Positions 2,897-61,162 of a DNA stretch of 64,000 nt are shown in pieces. Under the pieces are notes generated by a model that was not told the DNA's origin, ran no database searches, and saw only the letters and a list, made by a program, of their open reading frames with translations. The stretch's first letter is position 1. Each line of letters starts with the position of its first letter. The position numbers and the translations under genes are program-made. This DNA comes from Chloroflexota bacterium (GTDB lineage Bacteria; Chloroflexota; Anaerolineae; JAAYEA01), in assembly GCA_036841525.1 (NCBI GenBank), contig DAITVZ010000002.1, forward strand, positions 5,693-69,692, in the 5' to 3' direction.

Positions 2897-4114
2897 ATGC
2901 GCATCGCCTTTGTCGGACCCTTCGGATTGCGACCCAAAGGAACCATGTCCGCTCGGGCGCTTCCCCTGGCGCGCGCTCTGCACCGTCGTGGTCACGAGGT
3001 CAGCCTCTTCCTTCCGCCCTGGGACTACCCCGCCGACGCAGGGCGCACTGACGAGATCAATGGCGTCCGGGTCGTCCATGTGCCGCTTCCCACGGCCCCC
3101 TCGCCCTTCTGGCACATGGAGATCACCCGGCGGCTCGTGCGCGCCGCGGTCTCCGATCAGGCGGAGGTGGCCCACTGTTTCAAGCCCAAGGCCTATGCGG
3201 GGCTGGCGGCCTGGGCGCTGTGGCACCTTCGGCGCGCGGGGCTGTGGCGCGGAGCGGTAGTGGTGGACAGCGATGACTGGGAAGGCGCGGGTGGCTGGAA
3301 CGAGACCGGCGATTACAGTCCCTTGCAGAGGCGCCTCTTTGCCTGGCAGGAATCCTGGGGTCTGCGCCATGCCGACGCGGTGACGGTAGCCAGCGCGGCG
3401 CTGCAGACCATCGTCTGGAGCCTGGGCGTTCCCCCGGCGCGGGTCCACTATCTGCCCAATGGAGCCGGCCCCGGCGGACCTGCCGCCTCGCCGTCGGACG
3501 CGCTGGCGTTTCGCCAGCGTCACTCCCTGGGAGATTCCCCGCTCATGCTCCTCTACACCCGTTTCTTCGAGTTCTCCCTGCAGCGCGTCGTGGAGACGCT
3601 CAACCAGGTGTGGCAGGCTGTGCCCGAAGCGCGACTGCTGATCGTCGGCGAGGGATTGAAAGGCGAAGAGCGTGCGATGCTTCGGCTGCTCGAGGAGCGG
3701 GGCCACGATGTGCAGACGGTGTACCTCGGCTGGGTGCAACCCGACCAATTGCCCGTCTGCTTTGCTGCCGCGGATGTGGCCCTCCATCCCTATGATGACA
3801 CCCTCATCAATCGCACCAAGTGCTCCGCCAAGTTGGTGGACCTCTTGGCCGCGGGGGTGCCGGTGGTCGCCGATTCGGTGGGGCAGAACGCCATCTACAT
3901 CCAGCATATGCGCACGGGGCTGCTGGCGCGGCCGGCCGACCCCACCGCGTTCGCTGCCGCGGTGGTCAGCCTGCTGAAGGATAAGGAGCTAGGCCAGCGG
4001 ATTGGTCGCGCAGCCCGGGAAGAGGTACACAGCCGCTATCACTGGGACCATCTGGCCTCGATCGCCGAGCGCGCCTACGCTTCCGCCACGGCTAGTCGGC
4101 CTTCCTCCAGATAG
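2897..4114 (+). CDS. glycosyltransferase family 4 (GT-B fold)
   Basis: GT4-like N-terminal Rossmann region and a C-terminal donor-binding region (...LHPYDDTLINRTKCSAKLVDLLAAGVPVVA...GLLA). ATG with ribosome-binding site 8 nt after the upstream stop. Last gene of the cmk-plsC-DUF512-GT4 operon. Confidence 0.75.
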   Translation: MRIAFVGPFGLRPKGTMSARALPLARALHRRGHEVSLFLPPWDYPADAGRTDEINGVRVVHVPLPTAPSPFWHMEITRRLVRAAVSDQAEVAHCFKPKAYAGLAAWALWHLRRAGLWRGAVVVDSDDWEGAGGWNETGDYSPLQRRLFAWQESWGLRHADAVTVASAALQTIVWSLGVPPARVHYLPNGAGPGGPAASPSDALAFRQRHSLGDSPLMLLYTRFFEFSLQRVVETLNQVWQAVPEARLLIVGEGLKGEERAMLRLLEERGHDVQTVYLGWVQPDQLPVCFAAADVALHPYDDTLINRTKCSAKLVDLLAAGVPVVADSVGQNAIYIQHMRTGLLARPADPTAFAAAVVSLLKDKELGQRIGRAAREEVHSRYHWDHLASIAERAYASATASRPSSR

Positions 4115-4137
4115 AGGCCGGCTTGCGCCACCGGCCT
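4115..4137 (+). terminator. hairpin directly after the GT4 stop (AGGCCGG-N9-CCGGCCT); no T-tract
   Basis: 7-bp GC stem immediately 3' of the TAG at 4112-4114. The downstream gene is convergent. Confidence 0.3.
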
Positions 4138-4165
4138 GAGCAGGAGCCCTAGCCGCGGTCTCGTC

Positions 4166-4444
4166 CTAAAACTGAAGCTTGCCAAAGAAGCGCAGAAAGA
4201 GCTGCGAGGCGCGCTCGCGGCCCTCTTCGGTGATCACGACACGGCCCCCCAGGCCCGGCGCCGCTATGTAGCCCTGCTCGTAGAGCCGGTCCAGGCAATC
4301 AGGATCCCAGTGCGGACACGTGCGCGCCACATGGTACTGCTTGCAGGTCTCCAGATAGAGGAACACCAGGGCCAGTTCATCATCGCTACCCGTAAAGTCC
4401 ATCCAACCTCCCAACCGGCCGGGCCCGGCGACATCATCCTTCAC
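4166..4444 (-). CDS. hypothetical small protein (92 aa)
   Basis: ORF MKDDVAGPGRLGGWMDFTGSDDELALVFLYLETCKQYHVARTCPHWDPDCL... transcribed divergently from the sensor kinase. No recognised family; codon usage is consistent with a real gene. Confidence 0.4.
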   Translation of the reverse strand: MKDDVAGPGRLGGWMDFTGSDDELALVFLYLETCKQYHVARTCPHWDPDCLDRLYEQGYIAAPGLGGRVVITEEGRERASQLFLRFFGKLQF

Positions 4445-4538
4445 GCCGCGTGATTCTAGGCCGGTTGGGCATAATAGTCAAGCAGAGAGCCTCGCACGCC
4501 CGCGGCGTCCCTCGCTGCGCCCGGGTTGCCCGTTCCGG

Positions 4539-23914: not shown

Positions 23915-25006
23915 TCAGGTGTACCGGCCAAACTCGTGATAGGCCGTCAGCAGCGCCGCGATGTTCTCCGGCGGCGTGTCCGCCTGGATATTGTGCGCTG
24001 TGCCCAGGATATAGCCGCCTCCCGGCGCCAGCGCGGCGATGCGTTCCTGCACCTCCCATGCGACCTGCTCCGGCGTGCCAAAAGGCAGCGTCCGCTGAAT
24101 CGAGATTCCGCCATGGAATCCCAGGCGCTGACCATACTCGGCCTTGAGCGCCCTGTGATCCATGCCGGCCGCCTCGGGTTGCAGCGACTGGAGCACGTCC
24201 AGCCCCCGCTCGATCAGCAACGGCACCAGCGCTCGCACCGAGCCGCAGGTGTGATGCATGACGCTGACCCCGTGGCGCCTGGCAATGGCGCAATAGTCGG
24301 CAAAGCCCCTCCCCAGGAACTCCGCCCACATTCTGGGCGAGACCAGCGGGCCCGCTTGCGAGCCAAAGTCGTCGCCCGTGAGCAAGATATCCAACTGGCC
24401 GCGCGCGGCAGTAAGGATCCGCTCCTCATACTCGCCGTAGAACTGGCTGATCCGGCCCAAAACCGCGTGGGCCATTTCGGGCCGCTCCACCATATCCATC
24501 AGGATGCGCTCGACCCCGCGCAGGTACATGGCGGGCTTGAGCTGAGCGACCCGATTGAGCCGGTCGCCCATAAACACCGCGGCGCGCCCGGCTCGGTGAA
24601 CCGCTTCGCACTGCGCCGCGATCGCGCTATAGTCGAACCAGTCCGCCGACGGCCAACCGGCGTAAGCCTCCACTTCGGCGACGCTATCGGCGGCGGCCAG
24701 CGGGGACTCGGCCACCTCCATGTACTGCTCCAGGCCATGCGCCACCTGCACGCTCACTGGCCGGCGCAGCACCCCCCAGATGTCCCGGTCGCAGCCATCG
24801 GCTCGCCGCTCCAACGCCGGACCGATGTAGCCAGGCCCTTCGATGTACCGCAGGTCCACATCATGCTCATCCAGGAATTCGGCATAGGTCCGGCCGGTAG
24901 CGCGCTCGATGCTACGGATGCACCCGCTGGACGCCCAAAAGTCGATGGGTACCCGGTCAGGCTCCCTGTGTTGTAGCGCCAGCTTGACCCTCGTGCGAGA
25001 ATCCAT
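23915..25006 (-). CDS. URO-D superfamily protein (MtaA/CmuA-like)
   Basis: N-terminal RVKLALQHREPDRVPIDFW, LVSPRMWAEF and HTCGSVRALVPLLIERGLDVLQSLQ blocks. The start is placed at MDSRT..., 54 nt inside the tool ORF. Confidence 0.8.
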   Translation of the reverse strand: MDSRTRVKLALQHREPDRVPIDFWASSGCIRSIERATGRTYAEFLDEHDVDLRYIEGPGYIGPALERRADGCDRDIWGVLRRPVSVQVAHGLEQYMEVAESPLAAADSVAEVEAYAGWPSADWFDYSAIAAQCEAVHRAGRAAVFMGDRLNRVAQLKPAMYLRGVERILMDMVERPEMAHAVLGRISQFYGEYEERILTAARGQLDILLTGDDFGSQAGPLVSPRMWAEFLGRGFADYCAIARRHGVSVMHHTCGSVRALVPLLIERGLDVLQSLQPEAAGMDHRALKAEYGQRLGFHGGISIQRTLPFGTPEQVAWEVQERIAALAPGGGYILGTAHNIQADTPPENIAALLTAYHEFGRYT

Positions 25007-25060
25007 GACGACCGCTCGGCCTCCCCTCTTTTCCGCGCCCGCGAGCGCGCCCCCAACCAA

Positions 25061-43040: not shown

Positions 43041-44042
43041 CTAGGCGTGCGCCCGCGCCTCCTCGATGAGCGCCAGCATGTTAGCAATGGGCACGTCGCT
43101 CTGGATCGCTTGCGCCGGCGAGGTGATGTACCCGCCGCCACGGCCCATGCGAGAGACCACCTCGCGCACCTCTGCACGCACCTGCGCCGGCGTGCCAAAG
43201 GGCAGGGTCTGCTGCGTGCTGATCCCGCCCCAAAAGGTCAGCTTGCCGCCGTACCGCTCCTTGAGCCGATAGATGTCCATGCACTCGGGCTGCACGGGGT
43301 TCAGCACGTCCACGCCGATCTCGATCAAGTCGGGCAGGATCGCCTCGATGTTGCCGCAGGAATGCAGCCAGACGTCCTTGCCCTCAGCATGCACCAGATC
43401 GTATTCGCGCTGCTCCCCCGGGGCGATCAGGTCGCGCCACGCGTTGGGTGACATGAGCAGGCCATGTTGCGAGCCCCAGTCGCTGCCCAGCAGGATGCCA
43501 TCGATGCCCTCGTAACCCAGCAGGTTCTCCAGCATGACCATGTTCTTGTCGATGATCTTGTTCAGCATCCGCCGCGCAAAGTCCTTGTGCCCGCCAATGT
43601 CGCCCAGGAAATTCTCGATCCCGCGCGCGCTGTTGGCCTTCTCAAAGTGGCTGCCATAGATCATCACCAGCACGTAGCAACTGGTCTCTTCTTTCAGGCG
43701 AATCAGCTCTTCCTGATAGGCCGTATAGCTGCCGTGGCCACGCGTCTTAGGCAAGACCACCGGGTCATCAAAGTCCCGGTAACTGGCGGGGATATCGTGC
43801 CAGCCCCACCAAGGCGCCGAGATCGCGTGCACATGGTTGCCCATCGCCACGGACAAGTCGGCCCCGGGAAAGTGCGGGGCGACGATCTCTTGGGCGTCGC
43901 GCGTCAGGTTGATAAAGTAGGGCACATGGCCGATCTCCTGGTGCGCGATCGCCGCCTGGACCACCTGCCTGCGTGTCAACACGATGTAGCTGCCTCCCGT
44001 TGTCTGGTCGCCCTGCCGATCAGCGCTTGCACAGCTCTTCAT
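43041..44042 (-). CDS. URO-D superfamily protein (MtaA/CmuA-like)
   Basis: VLTRRQVVQAAIAHQEIGHVPYF N-terminus, LLMSPNAWRDLIAP and HSCGNIEAILPDLIEIGVDVLNPVQ blocks. The first ATG overlaps the upstream gene by 23 nt, so the true start may lie downstream. Confidence 0.75.
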   Translation of the reverse strand: MKSCASADRQGDQTTGGSYIVLTRRQVVQAAIAHQEIGHVPYFINLTRDAQEIVAPHFPGADLSVAMGNHVHAISAPWWGWHDIPASYRDFDDPVVLPKTRGHGSYTAYQEELIRLKEETSCYVLVMIYGSHFEKANSARGIENFLGDIGGHKDFARRMLNKIIDKNMVMLENLLGYEGIDGILLGSDWGSQHGLLMSPNAWRDLIAPGEQREYDLVHAEGKDVWLHSCGNIEAILPDLIEIGVDVLNPVQPECMDIYRLKERYGGKLTFWGGISTQQTLPFGTPAQVRAEVREVVSRMGRGGGYITSPAQAIQSDVPIANMLALIEEARAHA

Positions 44043-45081
44043 AGACCTGCTGGTAATACAGCACCGCGTCCACCGGCGTGTTCGGGGGGATGTGGTTCCC
44101 CACGGCCAGGAAATAGCCGGGGCAGCGCTTCCCGATCGACATACACCGCTCTACCTCGGCGCGGATGGCGGCCTTGTCGCCGCCTAGCAGGATGCGGGTA
44201 TCGGCATTGCCGATGAAAAAGTGCGTGCGTCCATATCTCTCGGCGATATACCCCATGTCGGTGGTCGGCTCCATCACGAACCCGCTGATCCCGCAGGCGG
44301 CGATATCGTCGATGAACATCGTATAGTTGCCATCCGAGGTGAAGGCGATCTTTTTGCCGGACTCGACCAGCGGCGCAAAGAGCTTCTTATAGTTGGGAAA
44401 GATGTACTCCCGATACCACTTGGGCGAGATGAAGGGCCCCGCGCTCCAGACGATGTCGTCGTGCACCATGACCATGGGCAGGTCCGCCGCGCCCAGGGCG
44501 TCATAGTACTGCTGTATCCACCGCGCATAGCGGTTCGCCACCTCGCCAAAGGCGACGGGATCGGTCCCCGCCGCCAGCAGCAACAGGTCCCACCCAAAGA
44601 GGCCGATCATCCCCGAGATCATGGTGATATAGACGCCGGTCATGTTGACCTGATTGGGGTTGTTCCGCGCATTGCGGGCATAGGCCTCCTCGAAGCGCGC
44701 CTTGAGCTCGCCCAAATCCTTCTGCCCCAGCGACTCCCAGGGATCGAAGCGCAGCACGTCCTCGGGCGTCTGAAAGTGGGGGCTGGCCCTGGGTATCCGC
44801 CAGTCCACCCCACCCGCCGCATAGACCGCATGGCCCATATCCGTATAGTACTCGCCCAGTTCCCCGTGGCTGATCAGCGTGGACCAGGCAAAGTCGAAAT
44901 CCCAGGCCCGCTCGAGCGCCCGCCCGGCCCGCTGCTTTTTCACCTGCGAGCTCTCCGGGCCTGCTTTGATCCCCGTTACGGCCTCGATGACCCCCCAGTG
45001 CGTGGTCACCGAGTACTCGGTGTGCGGCACCCTCGCCGGCATTTCCAGGTTGATCGCGGCCCATCCATCTTGATAGGACAT
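44020..45081 (-). CDS. URO-D-like superfamily protein
   Basis: N-terminus WAAINLEMPARVPHTEY matches the URO-D-like N-terminal pattern. FISPKWYREYIFP is similar to the LSPRMYRE block of the paralogs. 353 aa. Confidence 0.6.
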   Translation of the reverse strand: MSYQDGWAAINLEMPARVPHTEYSVTTHWGVIEAVTGIKAGPESSQVKKQRAGRALERAWDFDFAWSTLISHGELGEYYTDMGHAVYAAGGVDWRIPRASPHFQTPEDVLRFDPWESLGQKDLGELKARFEEAYARNARNNPNQVNMTGVYITMISGMIGLFGWDLLLLAAGTDPVAFGEVANRYARWIQQYYDALGAADLPMVMVHDDIVWSAGPFISPKWYREYIFPNYKKLFAPLVESGKKIAFTSDGNYTMFIDDIAACGISGFVMEPTTDMGYIAERYGRTHFFIGNADTRILLGGDKAAIRAEVERCMSIGKRCPGYFLAVGNHIPPNTPVDAVLYYQQVYEELCKR

Positions 45082-45107: not shown

Positions 45108-46367
45108 TCACTGCGGACCAGGGGTGCGCAGCACCTCTTCCATGGCGATCTCGGCCCATTCCCAGAGGCGTTTCGGCTGGTAGCGCACCGTGGAGATGTC
45201 CTTCATGATCACCTCGACGTTGCACCCGCGTGACTTGTCCAGCGCCTCGCGCAGCATCTTGCGCGCCAGGCCGGGACGCCAATCGTCCTCGGCCAGCAAC
45301 GCCGGCGTGGGCTTGTAGGAGAACACATAATCGCGCCCGATCTCGCGCGCGCCGCGGGCCACGTCCACCCAGGGGCTCATGGAGACCTTGCGCAGGTTGG
45401 GGATGCGCCTAAGGATGCCCATCTTGATGTCCAGCGGCTCGCAGCAGCCATAGTAGGTCAGGCCCCAGCGCTCCAGCCAGCGCATCTCGTGCCGCAGGGC
45501 GAACTCCCAGTGCTGCTCCGGCGACACTCCCGAGAAGATCTGGGCCGTGGCGCAGCCCCAGAGGTTGTGCGGCAGGGGGTGGGCGGCGTCATAGGGCGAG
45601 CCGGGCAGCTCGCGGGTATAGCCGTAGGCTCCGGAACCGATGCGCGTATTGTCGTCGTTGCGCGTGAGCAAGTTGAGCGACACCCACTGCTCCAGCTCGG
45701 CCATGTAGGCGTCCACCAGCCGCGCCATGATGGCGTTGACCATCTCGGGACGCAGCACCAGGTCCATCATCGCCTCGGTCACGCCCCACCAGCGGATCAG
45801 CTCATCCCAGGGGGCGAACCAGCGCCCCTTGATTCCCACCTTGCGCACCGGCATAATGTCGCCAAAGAGCTCGACCATGGCCTGGTAGCGCTCCTCGGTC
45901 GCGGCCACCTCGTGGGTCACCACCGGCGTCTTGATCTTGACGATATCCTCCGGCTCGACGATTTGGCGGTGAAAGTGTCTGGAGACGACGCTGCTGGTCG
46001 GGTCCGTGCGGGCGATATCCACATCTTCGGTGAGGCCCAGCCCGGTGCTGCGAATCTGCAGGGGACACGAAAGGTAGCCGTCCACCACCATGTCGCACGG
46101 AAAGTGACGCCATTGGTAGAGCAGTCGCCGCAGGCCCTGCTCCAGCTCGCGCGCCCAGGGGTCGGCGCAGCGCAAGGTCAGCTCGTCATCGGCGCTCATC
46201 TCGTTCCAGCAGACCTCGTTGATCCAGACCAGCGGGCGGACCGGCTCCAGGTCGTTGAGCCGGCGCCATAGCTCCGCCTTCTCCCGGTGCACTGGCAGCC
46301 CCGCGATTCCGGCCTGCTGCTCGGCCAGGCGACATAGGATGTCTCGGTCCTCTTGTGGGATCCTCAT
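45108..46367 (-). CDS. distant URO-D-like / methyltransferase-fold hypothetical protein
   Basis: 419 aa. The C-terminal YYGCCEPLDIKMGILRRIPNLRKVSMS resembles the HxCG...L..L...G.D block of the MtaA/URO-D fold. Clustered with three URO-D-like genes. Assignment is tentative. Confidence 0.45.
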   Translation of the reverse strand: MRIPQEDRDILCRLAEQQAGIAGLPVHREKAELWRRLNDLEPVRPLVWINEVCWNEMSADDELTLRCADPWARELEQGLRRLLYQWRHFPCDMVVDGYLSCPLQIRSTGLGLTEDVDIARTDPTSSVVSRHFHRQIVEPEDIVKIKTPVVTHEVAATEERYQAMVELFGDIMPVRKVGIKGRWFAPWDELIRWWGVTEAMMDLVLRPEMVNAIMARLVDAYMAELEQWVSLNLLTRNDDNTRIGSGAYGYTRELPGSPYDAAHPLPHNLWGCATAQIFSGVSPEQHWEFALRHEMRWLERWGLTYYGCCEPLDIKMGILRRIPNLRKVSMSPWVDVARGAREIGRDYVFSYKPTPALLAEDDWRPGLARKMLREALDKSRGCNVEVIMKDISTVRYQPKRLWEWAEIAMEEVLRTPGPQ

Positions 46368-46423
46368 GCTCCGCCCTCACCTCCCGCGACTTGGCCGCAG
46401 TATAGCCGGATCGCCCCAGAAGC

Positions 46424-46457
46424 AAAAACGGGCGCCGCGATGATCGCAGCGCCCGTT
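46424..46457 (-). terminator. rho-independent terminator on the minus strand after the permease gene (about 15-bp stem AACGGGCGCCGCGAU / AUCGCAGCGCCCGUU, then U5)
   Basis: Long inverted repeat with one mismatch at 46427-46457. The minus transcript continues UUUUUGCUUC (complement of 46421-46426). Begins 19 nt after the stop. Confidence 0.65.
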
Positions 46458-46475
46458 CAGCTCGCGGCCTGGCCG

Positions 46476-48752
46476 CTAGCGTCCGTTGCCCTCAGCCTCC
46501 TCGGCGACCACATAATCCTCTTCGTCTTCGATGGCCTTGATCTGGCGGCGCAGCCAAGAGACGGCCACCGGCTCGTAGCGCCGGCACAGCAGCACCGAGC
46601 AGGGAGCCTGCTCCGCCACCCAGTCATCCACGGAGCCAAAGAGTCGCGTGCTCAAGGACCACTCCTCGGAGGCGCCCAGTACAACCAGGTCATACGGCTC
46701 GCTGCGCGCCTCGGCCAGAATGCCCTCGGGCAACGACGCGCTCTCGCGCACACGCAGCGACACCCATGGCGGAACTTGTCCCAGAACCTCCTCGATCACC
46801 TCCGTCAGCAAGGCGGTCTTGTCCTCTAGCTCTTCCTGCAGTTCATCCTGGTCTGCCCGCGCGGACGGGCGCACAAGCCGCAGCGCGGTCACCTGGGCTC
46901 CCTTGGCCAGCGCGATCTCATAGGCGAGGCGCACCGCCAGGCGCGCATGCGTCGAGCCACCGATGGGGACGAGGATCTGCCGGACATCGTTCAGGCCGCG
47001 ATCCAGCAGGACCGCCACGTTCGTGGGCGCCCTCTGCAGCACGGCTTTCACCGGGTTTTCCGCCAAGGCTTCCCCCTTGAGGGGGCCTGGCCACCCCGCG
47101 AGCAGCAGCTTGACATTGTTGCGATTGCGCAGCTCCGCTAGTATTCCCTCGGCGATGGTGCGGGCGCTGCGCAGCTTGGTGTAGACGGCCAGGTTGTTCT
47201 GCAGGGCATAGGTGGATACCTCGGCCAACAGGGCCTTCTGCTGGTCCTTGGCTTGTCGAACGACCTGCGGCCCTCGCCTCCTCGATGATGGCGCCTTGTA
47301 CACCGAAAGGACGCACGCATAGGTATCCTCGCTGGCCTCGGCAAAAATCGCCGCCAGGCGCACCAGCGCCTGAGCCGTCTGGGGATGAGCCGCGGCGATG
47401 AGCAGCCGGTCCCTGGCCGGCTCGGCGCTCTTGAGCACCGAGGCAGTCCAGGTCGAGACCTTTGGGCCCAGGATGCGCAGCAACGTAAGGAGGACGAGCA
47501 ACACGGCCCCGAAAAGGATCGCGCGCCAGTCCGCAAAGGCGATGATCAGCACGCAGGCGACCCCTGCCGCGTACACGGTCCATGGGTAGAAGGGCACCTT
47601 GAACGGCCGCTTCAGGTCGGGGTGCAACTTCCTCAGGCGGATGAGCGACAGGCTGCCCCAGAACAGCACGAACAGATACCCAGAGCTCGAGATATAGCTC
47701 AGCAGGTCGACCAGGCCGATGAGAGCGACCAGTGCGCTGACTGCGCCGACGACGATTACGGCCACGTAGGGCGTGCGAAACCGGCTGAGCCTGGAGAACG
47801 CGCGCGGCCAGACCCGGTCGCGCCCCAGCGTGAACGCCTCGCGAGTGGCGCTGAGCATGGCCGAGTTGATCGTCGTGATAGTCGCGATGATGCCCAGCAC
47901 GGCCATGATCGCCACACCTATTCCTGGGGCAAAACGTGCGGCAGCGTCGGTCAGCGCCGTCTCCGAGCCAGCCAGCTCTTGCCAGGGAACGGTCCCCTGG
48001 GTCACCAGGGAGACGGTCATATAGATCACGGTTACCAGCGTCAAGCTCGTCAGGATGCCCACGGGGATTGCCCGGTCGGGGTTCTTGATCTCTTCGGCGT
48101 CATCGACGATCACCTCGAACCCCACATAGGCGTTGTAGAGGAGCGCCACGGTGGCGAGCATGGCGGCAAGATTGCGCCAGAGGCCGTCAAAGACGAAGAA
48201 CCTGCCCTCGGGGATGAAGACGTCCCAGGCAAAGCCATGGGGGCTCGCGAAGCCAGCGATGATATACCAGCCAAAGCCCACCAGCAGCAAGCCGCCCAGG
48301 ATGATCTGCGCGTTTCCGACCTTGGTCACGCCGAGGATGTTCAACACGGTGAAAACCAGGATGATCGCGATGGCGGTGGGGACAATGGGCAATCCTGGAA
48401 GAAAGACCCGCAAGGAGTAGGCAAAGCCAACTCCGGAGAGCGCCGCGTAAAAGGTGCTGGAGAGGCAGTCCATGGACCCCGTGAGGTAGTGGAGCAAGCC
48501 GGTGCCATAGGCCTCCCGCACGTAGCTCATGGCCCCGCCCGCTTCTGGGAACGCGGTCCCCAGCTCGCAATAGTTGATGGCCACGGCGTAGCTGAGCACG
48601 CCGCCAATAAGCAGCGCCAGGATGGCGGCCGGCCCGGCCATGCCCGCGGCATGGCCCGTGAGCACAAAGATCTCCGCAGCGATGGTGCCCGCCGCGCCCA
48701 ACATAATCACTTGAGGCAGGCCCAACTGCCTCCTCAACCTGCGGCCACTCAT
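46476..48752 (-). CDS. APC-family amino acid permease fused to two C-terminal universal stress protein (UspA) domains
   Basis: About 12 TM spans with APC-like blocks (PEAGGAMSYVREAYG). The C-terminal roughly 290 aa carry two Usp-like alpha/beta units (VLLDRGLNDVRQILVPIGGSTHA; DLVVLGASEEW). Start at the second Met (MSGRRL), 87 nt inside the tool ORF. Confidence 0.8.
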   Translation of the reverse strand: MSGRRLRRQLGLPQVIMLGAAGTIAAEIFVLTGHAAGMAGPAAILALLIGGVLSYAVAINYCELGTAFPEAGGAMSYVREAYGTGLLHYLTGSMDCLSSTFYAALSGVGFAYSLRVFLPGLPIVPTAIAIILVFTVLNILGVTKVGNAQIILGGLLLVGFGWYIIAGFASPHGFAWDVFIPEGRFFVFDGLWRNLAAMLATVALLYNAYVGFEVIVDDAEEIKNPDRAIPVGILTSLTLVTVIYMTVSLVTQGTVPWQELAGSETALTDAAARFAPGIGVAIMAVLGIIATITTINSAMLSATREAFTLGRDRVWPRAFSRLSRFRTPYVAVIVVGAVSALVALIGLVDLLSYISSSGYLFVLFWGSLSLIRLRKLHPDLKRPFKVPFYPWTVYAAGVACVLIIAFADWRAILFGAVLLVLLTLLRILGPKVSTWTASVLKSAEPARDRLLIAAAHPQTAQALVRLAAIFAEASEDTYACVLSVYKAPSSRRRGPQVVRQAKDQQKALLAEVSTYALQNNLAVYTKLRSARTIAEGILAELRNRNNVKLLLAGWPGPLKGEALAENPVKAVLQRAPTNVAVLLDRGLNDVRQILVPIGGSTHARLAVRLAYEIALAKGAQVTALRLVRPSARADQDELQEELEDKTALLTEVIEEVLGQVPPWVSLRVRESASLPEGILAEARSEPYDLVVLGASEEWSLSTRLFGSVDDWVAEQAPCSVLLCRRYEPVAVSWLRRQIKAIEDEEDYVVAEEAEGNGR

Positions 48753-48840
48753 CCAGAGTTCCTCCACTCTCTTGCGCGTGCCGTCCGCAAAGCCGCCAGG
48801 CGGCCCGCCTGCACTTCGCCGCCCCGACCAGCCGGACACG

Positions 48841-49020
48841 CAAAAGGCTCCAAGGCCTCGGCCTGGAGCCAGCAGACACGCCTATGCATCCGCTTCTCTC
48901 ACCGCCGACGGAGTTAGCTGACGGGTTAGGGCTGAAAGCTGCCCCTCTCGCGCTAGCGAGATGCACCCCAATGGTGGTTCCTCCGCTCCCCGGCGCCTTG
49001 TCGGCTGCCCGGGATTAGGC
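48841..49020 (-). ncRNA. cis-regulatory leader RNA with intrinsic terminator; candidate cyclic-di-AMP (ydaO/kimA-type) riboswitch
   Basis: A roughly 330-nt 5' leader on the minus strand. It contains the blocks CCUAAUCCCGGG, CCGGGGAGCGG, GGGGUGCAUC and CCCUAACCCGUCAGCUAACUCCG, reminiscent of the conserved ydaO segments (AAUC, GGGGAGC, GGGGUGAAUC, CUAACCCG). It ends in the terminator hairpin GGCUCCAGGCCGAGGCCUUGGAGCC plus UUUUG at 48841-48870, about 85 nt before the permease start. Confidence 0.4.
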
Positions 49021-49043
49021 ACGCAGACTGTTTCCAGCGATTA

Positions 49044-49072
49044 ACGATACACCCGAACGCCCTAGCCGTCAA
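49044..49072 (-). promoter_or_regulatory. sigma70-like promoter on the minus strand driving the leader RNA (TTGACG-17 nt-TATCGT)
   Basis: Reverse complement reads TTGACG gctagggcgttcgggtg TATCGT. Located just after the upstream gene stop (49090). Confidence 0.45.
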
Positions 49073-49089
49073 ATGCCTCGGCCACCTGC

Positions 49090-50373
49090 TCACTGCAAGA
49101 ACTTGAGCTTCAGGGCCTCGATCTCGCCGTCGCCGATGGGCACGAGTTTGCCCAGGGGCAGGATGTCCAGCACCGACTTGGCGCTGAACTCGGCCACCTC
49201 CAGCCGGTCAAAGGCTTGCAGAACGTCGCCCCCGACGGACAGCACGCAGTCGTTCTGCACAAACATCACCGGCGTCTCGCCGGAGAGGGCCGCGGCGATC
49301 CTGCCCGGATCGCGATATTGCGCCCCATAGGAGATCAAGGGGATATCGCGCAGCAGAATATAGCTCTCCGGTATAGTCCTCGTATCGAAGGGCTGCCCGG
49401 CGATGGCAAAGGCCATCACATGGGGTGGCTGGGCGATGAGGATCGCCCCGATCTCCGGGTGCGCCTCATAGATCGCCTGATGCAAGCGCGCCGAGCGGCT
49501 GGGGTGCTTTCCACGCTCCCTTCTGCCCTCCCGGATCAGCACCAGATCCTCGATCTCCATGGAGCGCCGATCTTGGCCGGTCGGCGTGATGATAAAGCTA
49601 TCCGCATCCACCCGGGCAGAGGCCACTCCCTCGGTGCTGATCATCAGATACCGATCGCAGGCCCGGTGCACGATCTCGACGATCCGGCCCCGAACCTCCC
49701 GCTCCGGACTCGTGTGCTCTGCCGGGTCAAACTCGGGCAGAAGGCTCTCCCGCCCATCGAAATAGGCGATCTGCTCCTCGCTCAGGCGATGGACAGGGCC
49801 CAGACCCCGCGCCTGCAGCAACGTGCGGGCACAGAAATCCAGTGTCTCCAGCCGCTGAAAGGCAGCCCGGAGGTCCTCGCCGCCCGCGGCGATGCCGTGG
49901 TTCTCCAACAAGACCGTCTCATAGCCCTGCGCAAAGGTCTCCGCGATCACCTCTCCGAGCGCCTCGCTGCCGGGCAACGCGTAAGGCGCATAGCCCACCG
50001 CCCCGCATATCCGCCGGGCCTGCGGGATGATGTCGGTCACCGGCGTCTCTCGCATGATGCTGAACGACACCAGCGCCGGGGGGTGCGCGTGCACGATGGC
50101 GCGGAGGTCGGGCCGCCGCGCATAGATGGCGCGATGGAAGGGGTACTCGGAGGAGGGGCGGTGCGGCCCGACGATGCGGCCATCCGCCTGCACGCACATG
50201 ATGTCCTTGGGCGTGAGCGCGCCTTTGTCCACCCCCGCCGGCGTGATCCAGATGTCGTCGTTGGTGTCCCGAATGGACAGGTTCCCCCCGGAGAGGGTGG
50301 TCATGTTGTTACGATAGATGCGCTCCATGATGGCGACCAATTGGTCGCGCGGGTGCAGCAGGTGGAATCTCAT
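49090..50373 (-). CDS. tandem-fused class II aldolase/adducin-domain protein (two aldolase-II-like units; fuculose-/ribulose-phosphate aldolase-like)
   Basis: First unit carries the SGGNLSIRD N-terminal motif and the metal-binding histidine block HAHPPAL. Second unit (residues about 215-427) repeats the fold (ISTEGVASAR...IITPTG..., HPEIGAILIAQPPHV). Confidence 0.75.
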   Translation of the reverse strand: MRFHLLHPRDQLVAIMERIYRNNMTTLSGGNLSIRDTNDDIWITPAGVDKGALTPKDIMCVQADGRIVGPHRPSSEYPFHRAIYARRPDLRAIVHAHPPALVSFSIMRETPVTDIIPQARRICGAVGYAPYALPGSEALGEVIAETFAQGYETVLLENHGIAAGGEDLRAAFQRLETLDFCARTLLQARGLGPVHRLSEEQIAYFDGRESLLPEFDPAEHTSPEREVRGRIVEIVHRACDRYLMISTEGVASARVDADSFIITPTGQDRRSMEIEDLVLIREGRRERGKHPSRSARLHQAIYEAHPEIGAILIAQPPHVMAFAIAGQPFDTRTIPESYILLRDIPLISYGAQYRDPGRIAAALSGETPVMFVQNDCVLSVGGDVLQAFDRLEVAEFSAKSVLDILPLGKLVPIGDGEIEALKLKFLQ

Positions 50374-61086: not shown

Positions 61087-61162
61087 TGGCGCGCCCGGCA
61101 GGACTCGAACCTGCAGCCTGCTGATTCGAAGTCAGACGCTCTGTCCTTTGAGCTACGGGCGC
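61087..61162 (-). tRNA. tRNA-Arg (anticodon UCG), 76 nt with genome-encoded CCA
   Basis: The reverse complement folds as a cloverleaf: acceptor GCGCCCG/CGGGCGC; D-arm GCTC-AAAGGACA-GAGC; anticodon stem-loop TCTGA-CTTCGAA-TCAGC (anticodon TCG); 5-nt variable loop; T-arm GCAGG-TTCGAGT-CCTGC; discriminator G then CCA. Confidence 0.85.

Follow-up and report, generated by a model that had tools for sequence, protein, structure and literature searches.

The window analyzed here is a 64,000-nucleotide (64-kb) stretch of contig DAITVZ010000002.1 from a Chloroflexota bacterium of the class Anaerolineae (assembly GCA_036841525.1), and all coordinates refer to it. On its minus strand, a noncoding leader precedes a gene encoding an APC-superfamily permease fused to Usp domains. 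We conclude, with a probability of about 0.88, that this leader is a ydaO/kimA-class riboswitch for c-di-AMP (cyclic diadenosine monophosphate) that acts as a transcriptional OFF switch on the permease–Usp gene.

The leader contains an intact c-di-AMP riboswitch aptamer

A first-pass annotation, made from the letters of the window, had read the leader as a ydaO-type riboswitch and proposed an Infernal comparison with RF00379, the Rfam family of the c-di-AMP riboswitch aptamer. The comparison supported this reading: RF00379 matched 49031-48889 (-) with an E value of 3.7e-17 and a score of 80.6 bits, where the gathering score is 38, the alignment spanned model positions 1-134 of 134, and cmscan flagged zero non-canonical pairs. 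When the whole window was scanned against Rfam 15 at gathering thresholds, two matches were obtained, RF00379 and one tRNA. The blocks that this annotation had likened to ydaO segments (AAUCCC, CGGGGAGCGG, GGGGUGCAUC and CCUAACCCGUCAGCUAACUCCG) are all present in the leader, and each aligns to the corresponding conserved segment of RF00379.

Related riboswitches were gathered by scanning metagenome contigs for the 18-nt core of the aptamer. A covariance model (R1) was then built from the window and ten near relatives, and 86 matches were aligned. All seven nested helices of the pseudo-dimeric fold are formed by standard pairs in the window, and the helix sequences were verified. The aptamer and its parts are as follows.

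48889..49031 (-): c-di-AMP riboswitch aptamer (RF00379), 143 nt; 80.6 bits, and 129.5 bits with the lineage model R1
48903..49021 (-): P1, closing helix, UGCC 49021-49018 with GGCG 48906-48903; covaries in the 84 relatives
48987..49014 (-): P2, UCCC/GGGA plus an 18-nt lineage-specific hairpin insert, GGC-A-GCC GACAA GGC-GCC
48908..48986 (-): P3, long-range helix, GCGGAG 48986-48981 with CUCCGU 48913-48908
48923..48976 (-): 3' half of the pseudo-dimeric core, holding P4, the GGG/CCC helix, P5 and P6
48976-48969 (-): P4, short hairpin (this and the next three by RF00379 model mapping)
48968-48966 with 48925-48923 (-): GGG/CCC helix
48960-48947 (-): P5, hairpin CUCGC-UAGC-GCGAG
48944-48929 (-): P6, hairpin GGGC-AGCUUUCA-GCCC
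48896..48938 (-): pseudoknot of 6 bp, P6 loop CUUUCA 48938-48933 with 3' tail UGAGAG 48901-48896

The fold is supported by covariation. Over the 84 relatives in the R1 alignment, pairing within the 27 nested pairs reaches 95.6%, and 19 of the 27 show changes on both sides; none of 500 shuffles reached the observed values, and control structures slid by 1-3 columns gave only 38-55% pairing. P3 pairs at six of six positions in the window, with A-U where the consensus has G-C, and is 97.8% paired across the relatives. The pseudoknot was assessed by a permutation test on 68 distinct loop/tail combinations, in which each P6 loop paired on average 6.66 bp with its own tail vs 5.07 ± 0.12 bp with swapped tails. 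Covariation between the loop and the 3' tail is seen directly in the pairs CUUUC/GAAAG, CCUUC/GAAGG, CCCUUA/UAAGGG, CUUGG/CCAAG and UUCGC/GCGAA.

Sequence conservation leads to the same result. Among the 84 related riboswitches, 47 alignment columns are conserved at ≥85%, including the junction nucleotides AAU, GGAACC, GGGGUG.AU and AACCCGUCAGCUAAC, and the window aptamer agrees at 46 of them; outside the 18-mer used as bait, agreement is found at 28 of 29 such columns. The ligand-contacting nucleotides were judged through conservation only. The sole mismatch is a C for A at 48907, and nine of the 84 relatives have the same C. Relative to the upper-case Rfam consensus, there are three or four departures: GCAUC for GAAUC, AG for UA before P6, and a C replacing the A between P3 and P1. 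Of 57 relatives, 8 have CA or UA at the GAAUC site. By all sequence and structure criteria tested, the aptamer is a canonical, intact member of the ydaO/kimA class (RF00379), and the element is an ordinary addition to this well-known class.

The aptamer is followed by an intrinsic terminator upstream of the permease start codon

The intergenic leader is exactly 337 nt long (48753-49089, minus strand), from the aldolase stop codon UGA (49092-49090) to the permease ATG (48752). The elements that surround the aptamer are listed below.

49044..49072 (-): sigma-70-like promoter, -35 TTGACG 49072-49067, 17-nt spacer, -10 TATCGT 49049-49044
48871..48894 (-): predicted linker hairpin between aptamer and terminator, AGCGGAUGC ... 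GUGUCUGCU, ΔG -10.6 kcal/mol (prediction only)
48836..48870 (-): intrinsic terminator (attenuator), hairpin GGCUCCAGGCCGAGGCCUUGGAGCC 48870-48846, then UUUUGCGUGU 48845-48836
48761..48765 (-): Shine–Dalgarno (SD) sequence GGAGG, 8 nt 5' of the ATG at 48752

The promoter agrees with the consensus at 9 of 12 positions and is the sole such site in the 700 nt of 48600-49300, where shuffles of the region give 0.0 ± 0.1; the call is a consensus match only, and its position would put the transcription start near 49037-49038. The attenuator has a 10-bp stem with one bulge (ΔG -18.1 kcal/mol), lies 18 nt 3' of the aptamer and about 85-90 nt before the ATG, and is separated from the ATG by a GC-rich spacer of 93 nt. 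The first-pass annotation had described this layout: its 337-nt noncoding gap between the aldolase stop and the permease start was upheld, its minus-strand promoter was recovered by the consensus scan, its hairpin with a U-tract about 85 nt before the start codon corresponds to the attenuator, and its downstream APC-permease/UspA fusion was identified by Pfam as an APC permease with tandem Usp domains. For the start codon itself, the gene caller behind protein cluster P0001 had picked a TTG nine codons downstream of 48752; we kept 48752 because the alignment with orthologues extends to the first residue and the SD spacing is better for the ATG.

Members of this class have been described as OFF switches: the terminator is favored when c-di-AMP binds (PMC9960051). 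The OFF model fits the leader because the aptamer is followed, 18 nt on, by a stable hairpin and U-tract at a short distance from the ATG, and we infer that the switch direction is OFF. Transcription would begin at the promoter, near 49037, and the first ~150 nt would fold into the aptamer, with its seven nested helices and the pseudoknot. At high c-di-AMP, the ligand would lock the pseudoknot together with P1 and P3; the terminator hairpin with its U-tract (48870-48836) would then form, the polymerase would stop ~85-90 nt before the start codon, and the importer would not be made. At low c-di-AMP, a state linked in the literature to K+ or osmolyte limitation, the 5' strands of the unliganded aptamer would be available to capture the 5' half of the terminator stem (49037-49016 with 48884-48863 is the leading candidate for this pairing), the polymerase would read through, and the APC–Usp transporter would be expressed.

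Two candidate antiterminators are predicted by folding

The pairing required for read-through was explored by folding, and two candidates were predicted.

48863..49037 (-): candidate antiterminator A, 49037-49016 (including the P1 5' strand) with 48884-48863 (linker and 5' half of the terminator stem)

Candidate A uses the first 22 nt of the inferred transcript. Its duplex is predicted at -25.4 kcal/mol vs shuffle means of -14 to -16, and only 0.15-0.45% of shuffles are equal or better. It is the best partner for the 5' segment 49037-49016 anywhere in the leader, and the minimum-energy structure computed for the nascent 178-nt prefix contains it. Constrained folding puts the ON state formed with A at -83.1 kcal/mol and the OFF state at -86.2 kcal/mol, a gap of only 3 kcal/mol. 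Candidate antiterminator B pairs GGAGC (48989-48985, P2/P3 junction and P3 5' strand) with GCUCC of the terminator 5' strand (48869-48865), and its ON state is 11 kcal/mol worse than OFF in the window.

The only divergent homologue of the whole leader that was found, on a metagenome locus (L119), is 78% identical over 197 nt and contains an RF00379 match of 88.1 bits. Its terminator has a perfect 9-bp stem, GCUCCAGGC-CUGU-GCCUGGAGC, followed by UUUUU; relative to that of the window, it has another loop and lacks the bulged U and the outermost G-C pair. Conservation of the hairpin in related genomes, a point on which the first-pass annotation had staked its reading, is thus seen as far as the data allow, since the terminator is kept in this single divergent leader. 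The L119 contig stops 176 nt past the terminator, and no open reading frame (ORF) start is present there. Among local competitors at the homologous site, candidate B ranks first in the window (-15.7 kcal/mol) as well as in L119 (-12.3 kcal/mol). For the terminator/antiterminator alternatives that the first-pass annotation had raised, folding gives A and B as candidates, and no covariation supports either pairing. There is no covariation in the expression platform because the riboswitch is absent from the 49 orthologous loci described below and because the same-species leaders are near-identical. Candidate A is our best current guess for the antiterminator, a tentative one put forward only as a hypothesis from folding models.

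In the minimum-energy fold of the full-length leader, GGCACGCGCA (48774-48783, just upstream of the SD sequence) pairs with UGCGUGCC (49015-49023, which holds the P1 5' strand). A near-copy of UGCGUGCC, UUGCGUGU, sits after the terminator. The predicted GGCACGCGCA/UGCGUGCC pairing could be a long-range contact within transcripts that read through, or a product of chance in a GC-rich RNA.

The riboswitch–permease pairing is specific to one lineage

The relatives of the permease all belong to Chloroflexota, class Anaerolineae. The same protein (cluster at ≥90% identity) is NLS79804.1 from the Chloroflexi metagenome-assembled genome GCA_012689325.1, and the proteins that come next share only about 65% identity. 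The locus is also carried, with nearly identical leaders, by nine contigs that stem from independent samples (L081-L089); among these leaders there are four single-nucleotide polymorphisms (SNPs) in all; they lie upstream of P1 or in the bulge and loop of the P2 insert, and none is at a paired position. The two SNPs in the same-species contigs L086 and L088 are those on the bulge and in the loop of this insert.

We compared 80 loci with permease relatives; 49 of these hold Anaerolineae orthologues, with identities of 44-72%. RF00379 is missing from every one of the 49 orthologous permease–Usp loci, all in other species; they show no blastn similarity to the window leader and no R1 hit even at E ≤ 1, and the synteny around the permease is not conserved in them. 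None of a further set of metagenome loci (L170-L209) was a closer relative. The pairing of the riboswitch with the permease is specific to this lineage. One targeted search of the literature for c-di-AMP riboswitches in Chloroflexota or Anaerolineae brought up no paper.

Alternative readings of the leader

Several observations weigh against a transcriptional OFF switch. The U-tract of the attenuator is short (4 U, then GCGUGU). Candidate antiterminator A is not reproduced in L119. The equilibrium energy model puts terminator formation at 95%, and therefore any switching must be kinetic and co-transcriptional. The riboswitch is missing from 49 of 49 orthologous loci. Finally, a motif search and a Pfam survey of ~45 ORFs detected no diadenylate cyclase or c-di-AMP phosphodiesterase within the window.

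The alternative that survives best, which we consider unlikely, is that the element is a genuine c-di-AMP sensor acting mainly on translation or mRNA stability, with the hairpin being incidental or a partial terminator. The SD sequence could, for instance, be hidden by a long-range pairing that involves an aptamer strand rich in pyrimidines (ACUCCG) or GGCACGCGCA near the ribosome-binding site. The pairing of the P1 5' region with GGCACGCGCA in the full-length fold would suit such a role, the 93-nt GC-rich spacer between terminator and ATG has no assigned role, and the U-tract is short; moreover, the nlpC riboswitch of Corynebacterium glutamicum is a class member proposed to act on translation without a canonical terminator (PMC9960051). 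However, the hairpin and U-tract located 18 nt past the aptamer are kept in L119 despite 22% divergence, the permease gene itself ends in a terminator of the same style, and the SD sequence lies in a small hairpin loop, not sequestered, in the predicted folds.

Next, the hairpin at 48870-48836 could mainly terminate the upstream hydrolase–HD–aldolase operon, in which case the riboswitch would be a decaying orphan with no current role on the permease. We regard this as very unlikely. The terminator scan finds no terminator between the aldolase stop and the aptamer, and the absence of the riboswitch from every orthologous permease locus in other species implies that the gene does not generally need it. 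Yet 46 of 47 conserved positions match and neither the helices nor the pseudoknot are disrupted, unlike what a decaying element would show; the promoter-like site sits between aldolase and aptamer; and the leader is near-identical across the nine independent-sample contigs, with its few SNPs at unpaired positions.

It is hardly credible that an RF00379-like fold departs here from the class norm, as an ON switch or with an altered ligand specificity of the kind known in other riboswitch classes: the deviations at upper-case consensus positions that could favor this idea occur in other members as well (the C at the P3/P1 junction and the CA/UA at the GAAUC site), the permease is in keeping with the c-di-AMP regulon, and the published members are described as OFF switches (PMC9960051).

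The regulated gene encodes an amino-acid-type transporter with two Usp domains

The leader serves a single gene, which has its own terminator.

46476..48752 (-): regulated gene, 758-aa APC-superfamily permease with tandem Usp; permease residues 10-413, Usp about 455-724
46416..46458 (-): gene-end intrinsic terminator, 15-bp stem with 10 G-C pairs, then UUUUUGCUU; 18 nt past the permease stop codon

Because this strong terminator ends the gene, the permease is a self-contained transcription unit, which consists of promoter, riboswitch, attenuator, single gene and terminator. As the gene-end terminator is of the same style as the attenuator, this genome appears to use intrinsic terminators whose U-tracts are short.

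The permease part matches AA_permease_2 (PF13520, 154 bits, 7e-45) and PF00324 (132 bits), and Usp (PF00582, 4e-24) matches two stretches of the C-terminal part. A phmmer search against PDB sequences (E ≤ 1e-3) matched 36 chains; the best solved relatives are GkApcT (5oqt/6f34, 1e-35), and the others include plant and animal cationic amino-acid transporters (CAT), ApcT, LAT1 and AdiC. KimA (6s3k) is absent from the 36 chains, and identity as a KimA-type K+ importer was rejected. As a positive control, the riboswitch-associated permease of metagenome locus L090 matched only KimA (2e-63). In NCBIfam, the nearest models, TIGR00909 (217 bits) and BcaP, both scored below their cutoffs, that of TIGR00909 being equivalog-style. 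These matches indicate that the protein is an amino-acid/organocation-type transporter and not KimA, and that its substrate is probably an amino acid or an organic cation or osmolyte rather than K+.

The Usp domain of Staphylococcus aureus KdpD is a protein receptor for c-di-AMP and needs the motif SXS-X20-FTAXY (PMC4686210, PMC8214093). A regular-expression search found neither this motif nor FTAxY in the two Usp domains of the window protein, and we rejected them as a KdpD-type c-di-AMP receptor because the motif is missing. The UspFG-type ATP motif G-2x-G-9x-G(S/T) also had no exact match; the nearest sequence is GASEEWSLSTRLFGS at residue 693, which has Glu in place of the second Gly. For permease-fused Usp domains, no ligand is known (PMC8214093).

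The lineage might have recruited the riboswitch to the APC–Usp transporter recently, with the Usp module serving as a second sensor, at the level of the protein, that detects c-di-AMP or some related adenine nucleotide through a non-KdpD-type pocket. Such two-tier control by RNA and protein is known for KimA and KtrA in Bacillus, and, if true, it would apply here and the locus would point to the ligand of transporter-fused Usp domains. The missing KdpD-type motif speaks against it, and we consider this quite improbable.

Neighboring genes

49090-50373 (-): upstream gene, 427 aa, two tandem class II aldolase/adducin domains (PF00596 in two stretches, 258 bits)

The aldolase gene appears to share an operon with the genes that precede it, which encode an HD-domain protein of 174 aa and an alpha/beta hydrolase. 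On the other side of the permease, an ORF of 419 aa (45108-46367, minus strand) lies between the permease terminator and a pair of URO-D genes; neither Pfam nor NCBIfam gave a match for it, and none of the 80 related loci holds a homologue. The window contains four URO-D-like (MtaA/CmuA-type methyltransferase-like) paralogues, at 13960-15204(+), 23915-25060(-), 43041-44042(-) and 44020-45081(-), two of which are just downstream of the riboswitch-controlled permease, and one MTTB-superfamily gene at 33277-34749(+). These paralogues and the MTTB gene suggest corrinoid-dependent demethylation of methylated amines or quaternary-amine osmolytes. The tRNA gene at window positions 61087-61162 (-) is a tRNA-Arg with anticodon UCG.

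Riboswitches sharing the aptamer core

The 69 ORFs found downstream of riboswitches that share the aptamer core were tallied by Pfam, giving Na_H_Exchanger 10, AA_permease 8, NLPC_P60 6, PG_binding_1 5 and KdpA 4. The AA_permease targets include transporters of the GkApcT type (L108) and the CAT type (L124 group). The L108 permease matches GkApcT at 3e-55 and is 32% identical to the window protein, and its aptamer scores 86.1 bits with RF00379. Since GkApcT/CAT-type permeases recur behind this riboswitch in unrelated contigs, the pairing in the window is not unique in kind. More than half of the c-di-AMP riboswitch targets in Bacillales and Clostridia are ion, osmoprotectant and amino-acid transporters, and almost all targets in Actinobacteria are cell-wall related (PMC9960051). 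The window target fits this published c-di-AMP regulon.

Several of these riboswitches have features of their own. In L095 (1316-2125, minus strand), three full-length aptamers are arranged in tandem, ~310-350 nt apart and at 105-109 bits each (R1), upstream of a 395-aa ORF. In L126, L139 and L146, the first hairpin 3' of the aptamer takes the 3' tail of the pseudoknot as its 5' strand, and because both use this tail, the pseudoknot excludes the hairpin and vice versa. The released 3' strand is rich in pyrimidines and resembles an anti-SD sequence, and this arrangement suggests that these three loci carry a translational expression platform, unlike that of the window. Four loci (L164, L134, L099 and L157) share an element ~60-150 nt past their aptamers, after the terminator, which consists of a pyrimidine-rich stretch and a long hairpin (ACUUCUUCUCCUCCUUUUCGAUAGGUUGUCUCCUCCCGUCGGCGUCUGCGGGAGGACGACAACC...) and matched no Rfam family at gathering score. 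In two of them, L134 and L157, tRNA genes lie on the same strand 240-310 nt downstream. L205, a metagenome locus that also bears the riboswitch core 18-mer, contains a CdaA-like diadenylate cyclase ORF at 3613-4446 (+) (DGAVII ... GTRHRAA).

Comparison with known systems

The leader adds a confidently annotated c-di-AMP riboswitch to Chloroflexota/Anaerolineae. Its amino-acid-type (GkApcT/CAT-like) target supports the view that c-di-AMP governs the uptake of organic osmolytes and amino acids besides K+, and its lineage-specific presence illustrates the turnover of riboswitch–gene pairings. Current understanding is unchanged, and a standard Rfam-based annotation pipeline should call the window riboswitch.

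YdaO of Bacillus subtilis, the namesake of the riboswitch class, is the APC-fold K+ importer KimA. The window aptamer resembles the B. subtilis ydaO (kimA) riboswitch in its family, helices, pseudoknot and conserved junction nucleotides, and in both cases an intrinsic terminator lies in the 5' untranslated region of an APC-superfamily transporter gene, with a presumed OFF switch. Unlike the B. subtilis protein, however, the window protein is GkApcT/CAT-like and not KimA-like and carries two C-terminal Usp domains; the host belongs to Chloroflexota (Anaerolineae) and not to Firmicutes, and P2 has an 18-nt hairpin insert. In the kdpFABC leader of Bacillus thuringiensis, it was shown experimentally that c-di-AMP binding promotes intrinsic termination and that read-through occurs when c-di-AMP falls (PMC6488665). 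The cargo there is a K+ ATPase, whereas here it is an amino-acid-type permease and the mechanism is inferred only.

Closer in cargo are the metagenomic loci L108, L124, L130, L138 and L156, in which RF00379 aptamers also lie directly upstream of APC amino-acid-type transporters. These genes come from other organisms and are not orthologues of the window gene, and no Usp fusion was seen in them (L108 is truncated by the contig end). As in S. aureus KdpD, a Usp domain is placed on a component of ion or osmolyte homeostasis under c-di-AMP control; unlike those of KdpD, the Usp domains of the window lack SXS-X20-FTAXY, and nothing points to c-di-AMP binding by them. Compared with the characterized riboswitches, that of the window differs in details only: its Chloroflexota host, a permease–Usp cargo in place of KimA, Ktr, Kdp or a cell-wall hydrolase, the P2 insert, and its restriction to one lineage.

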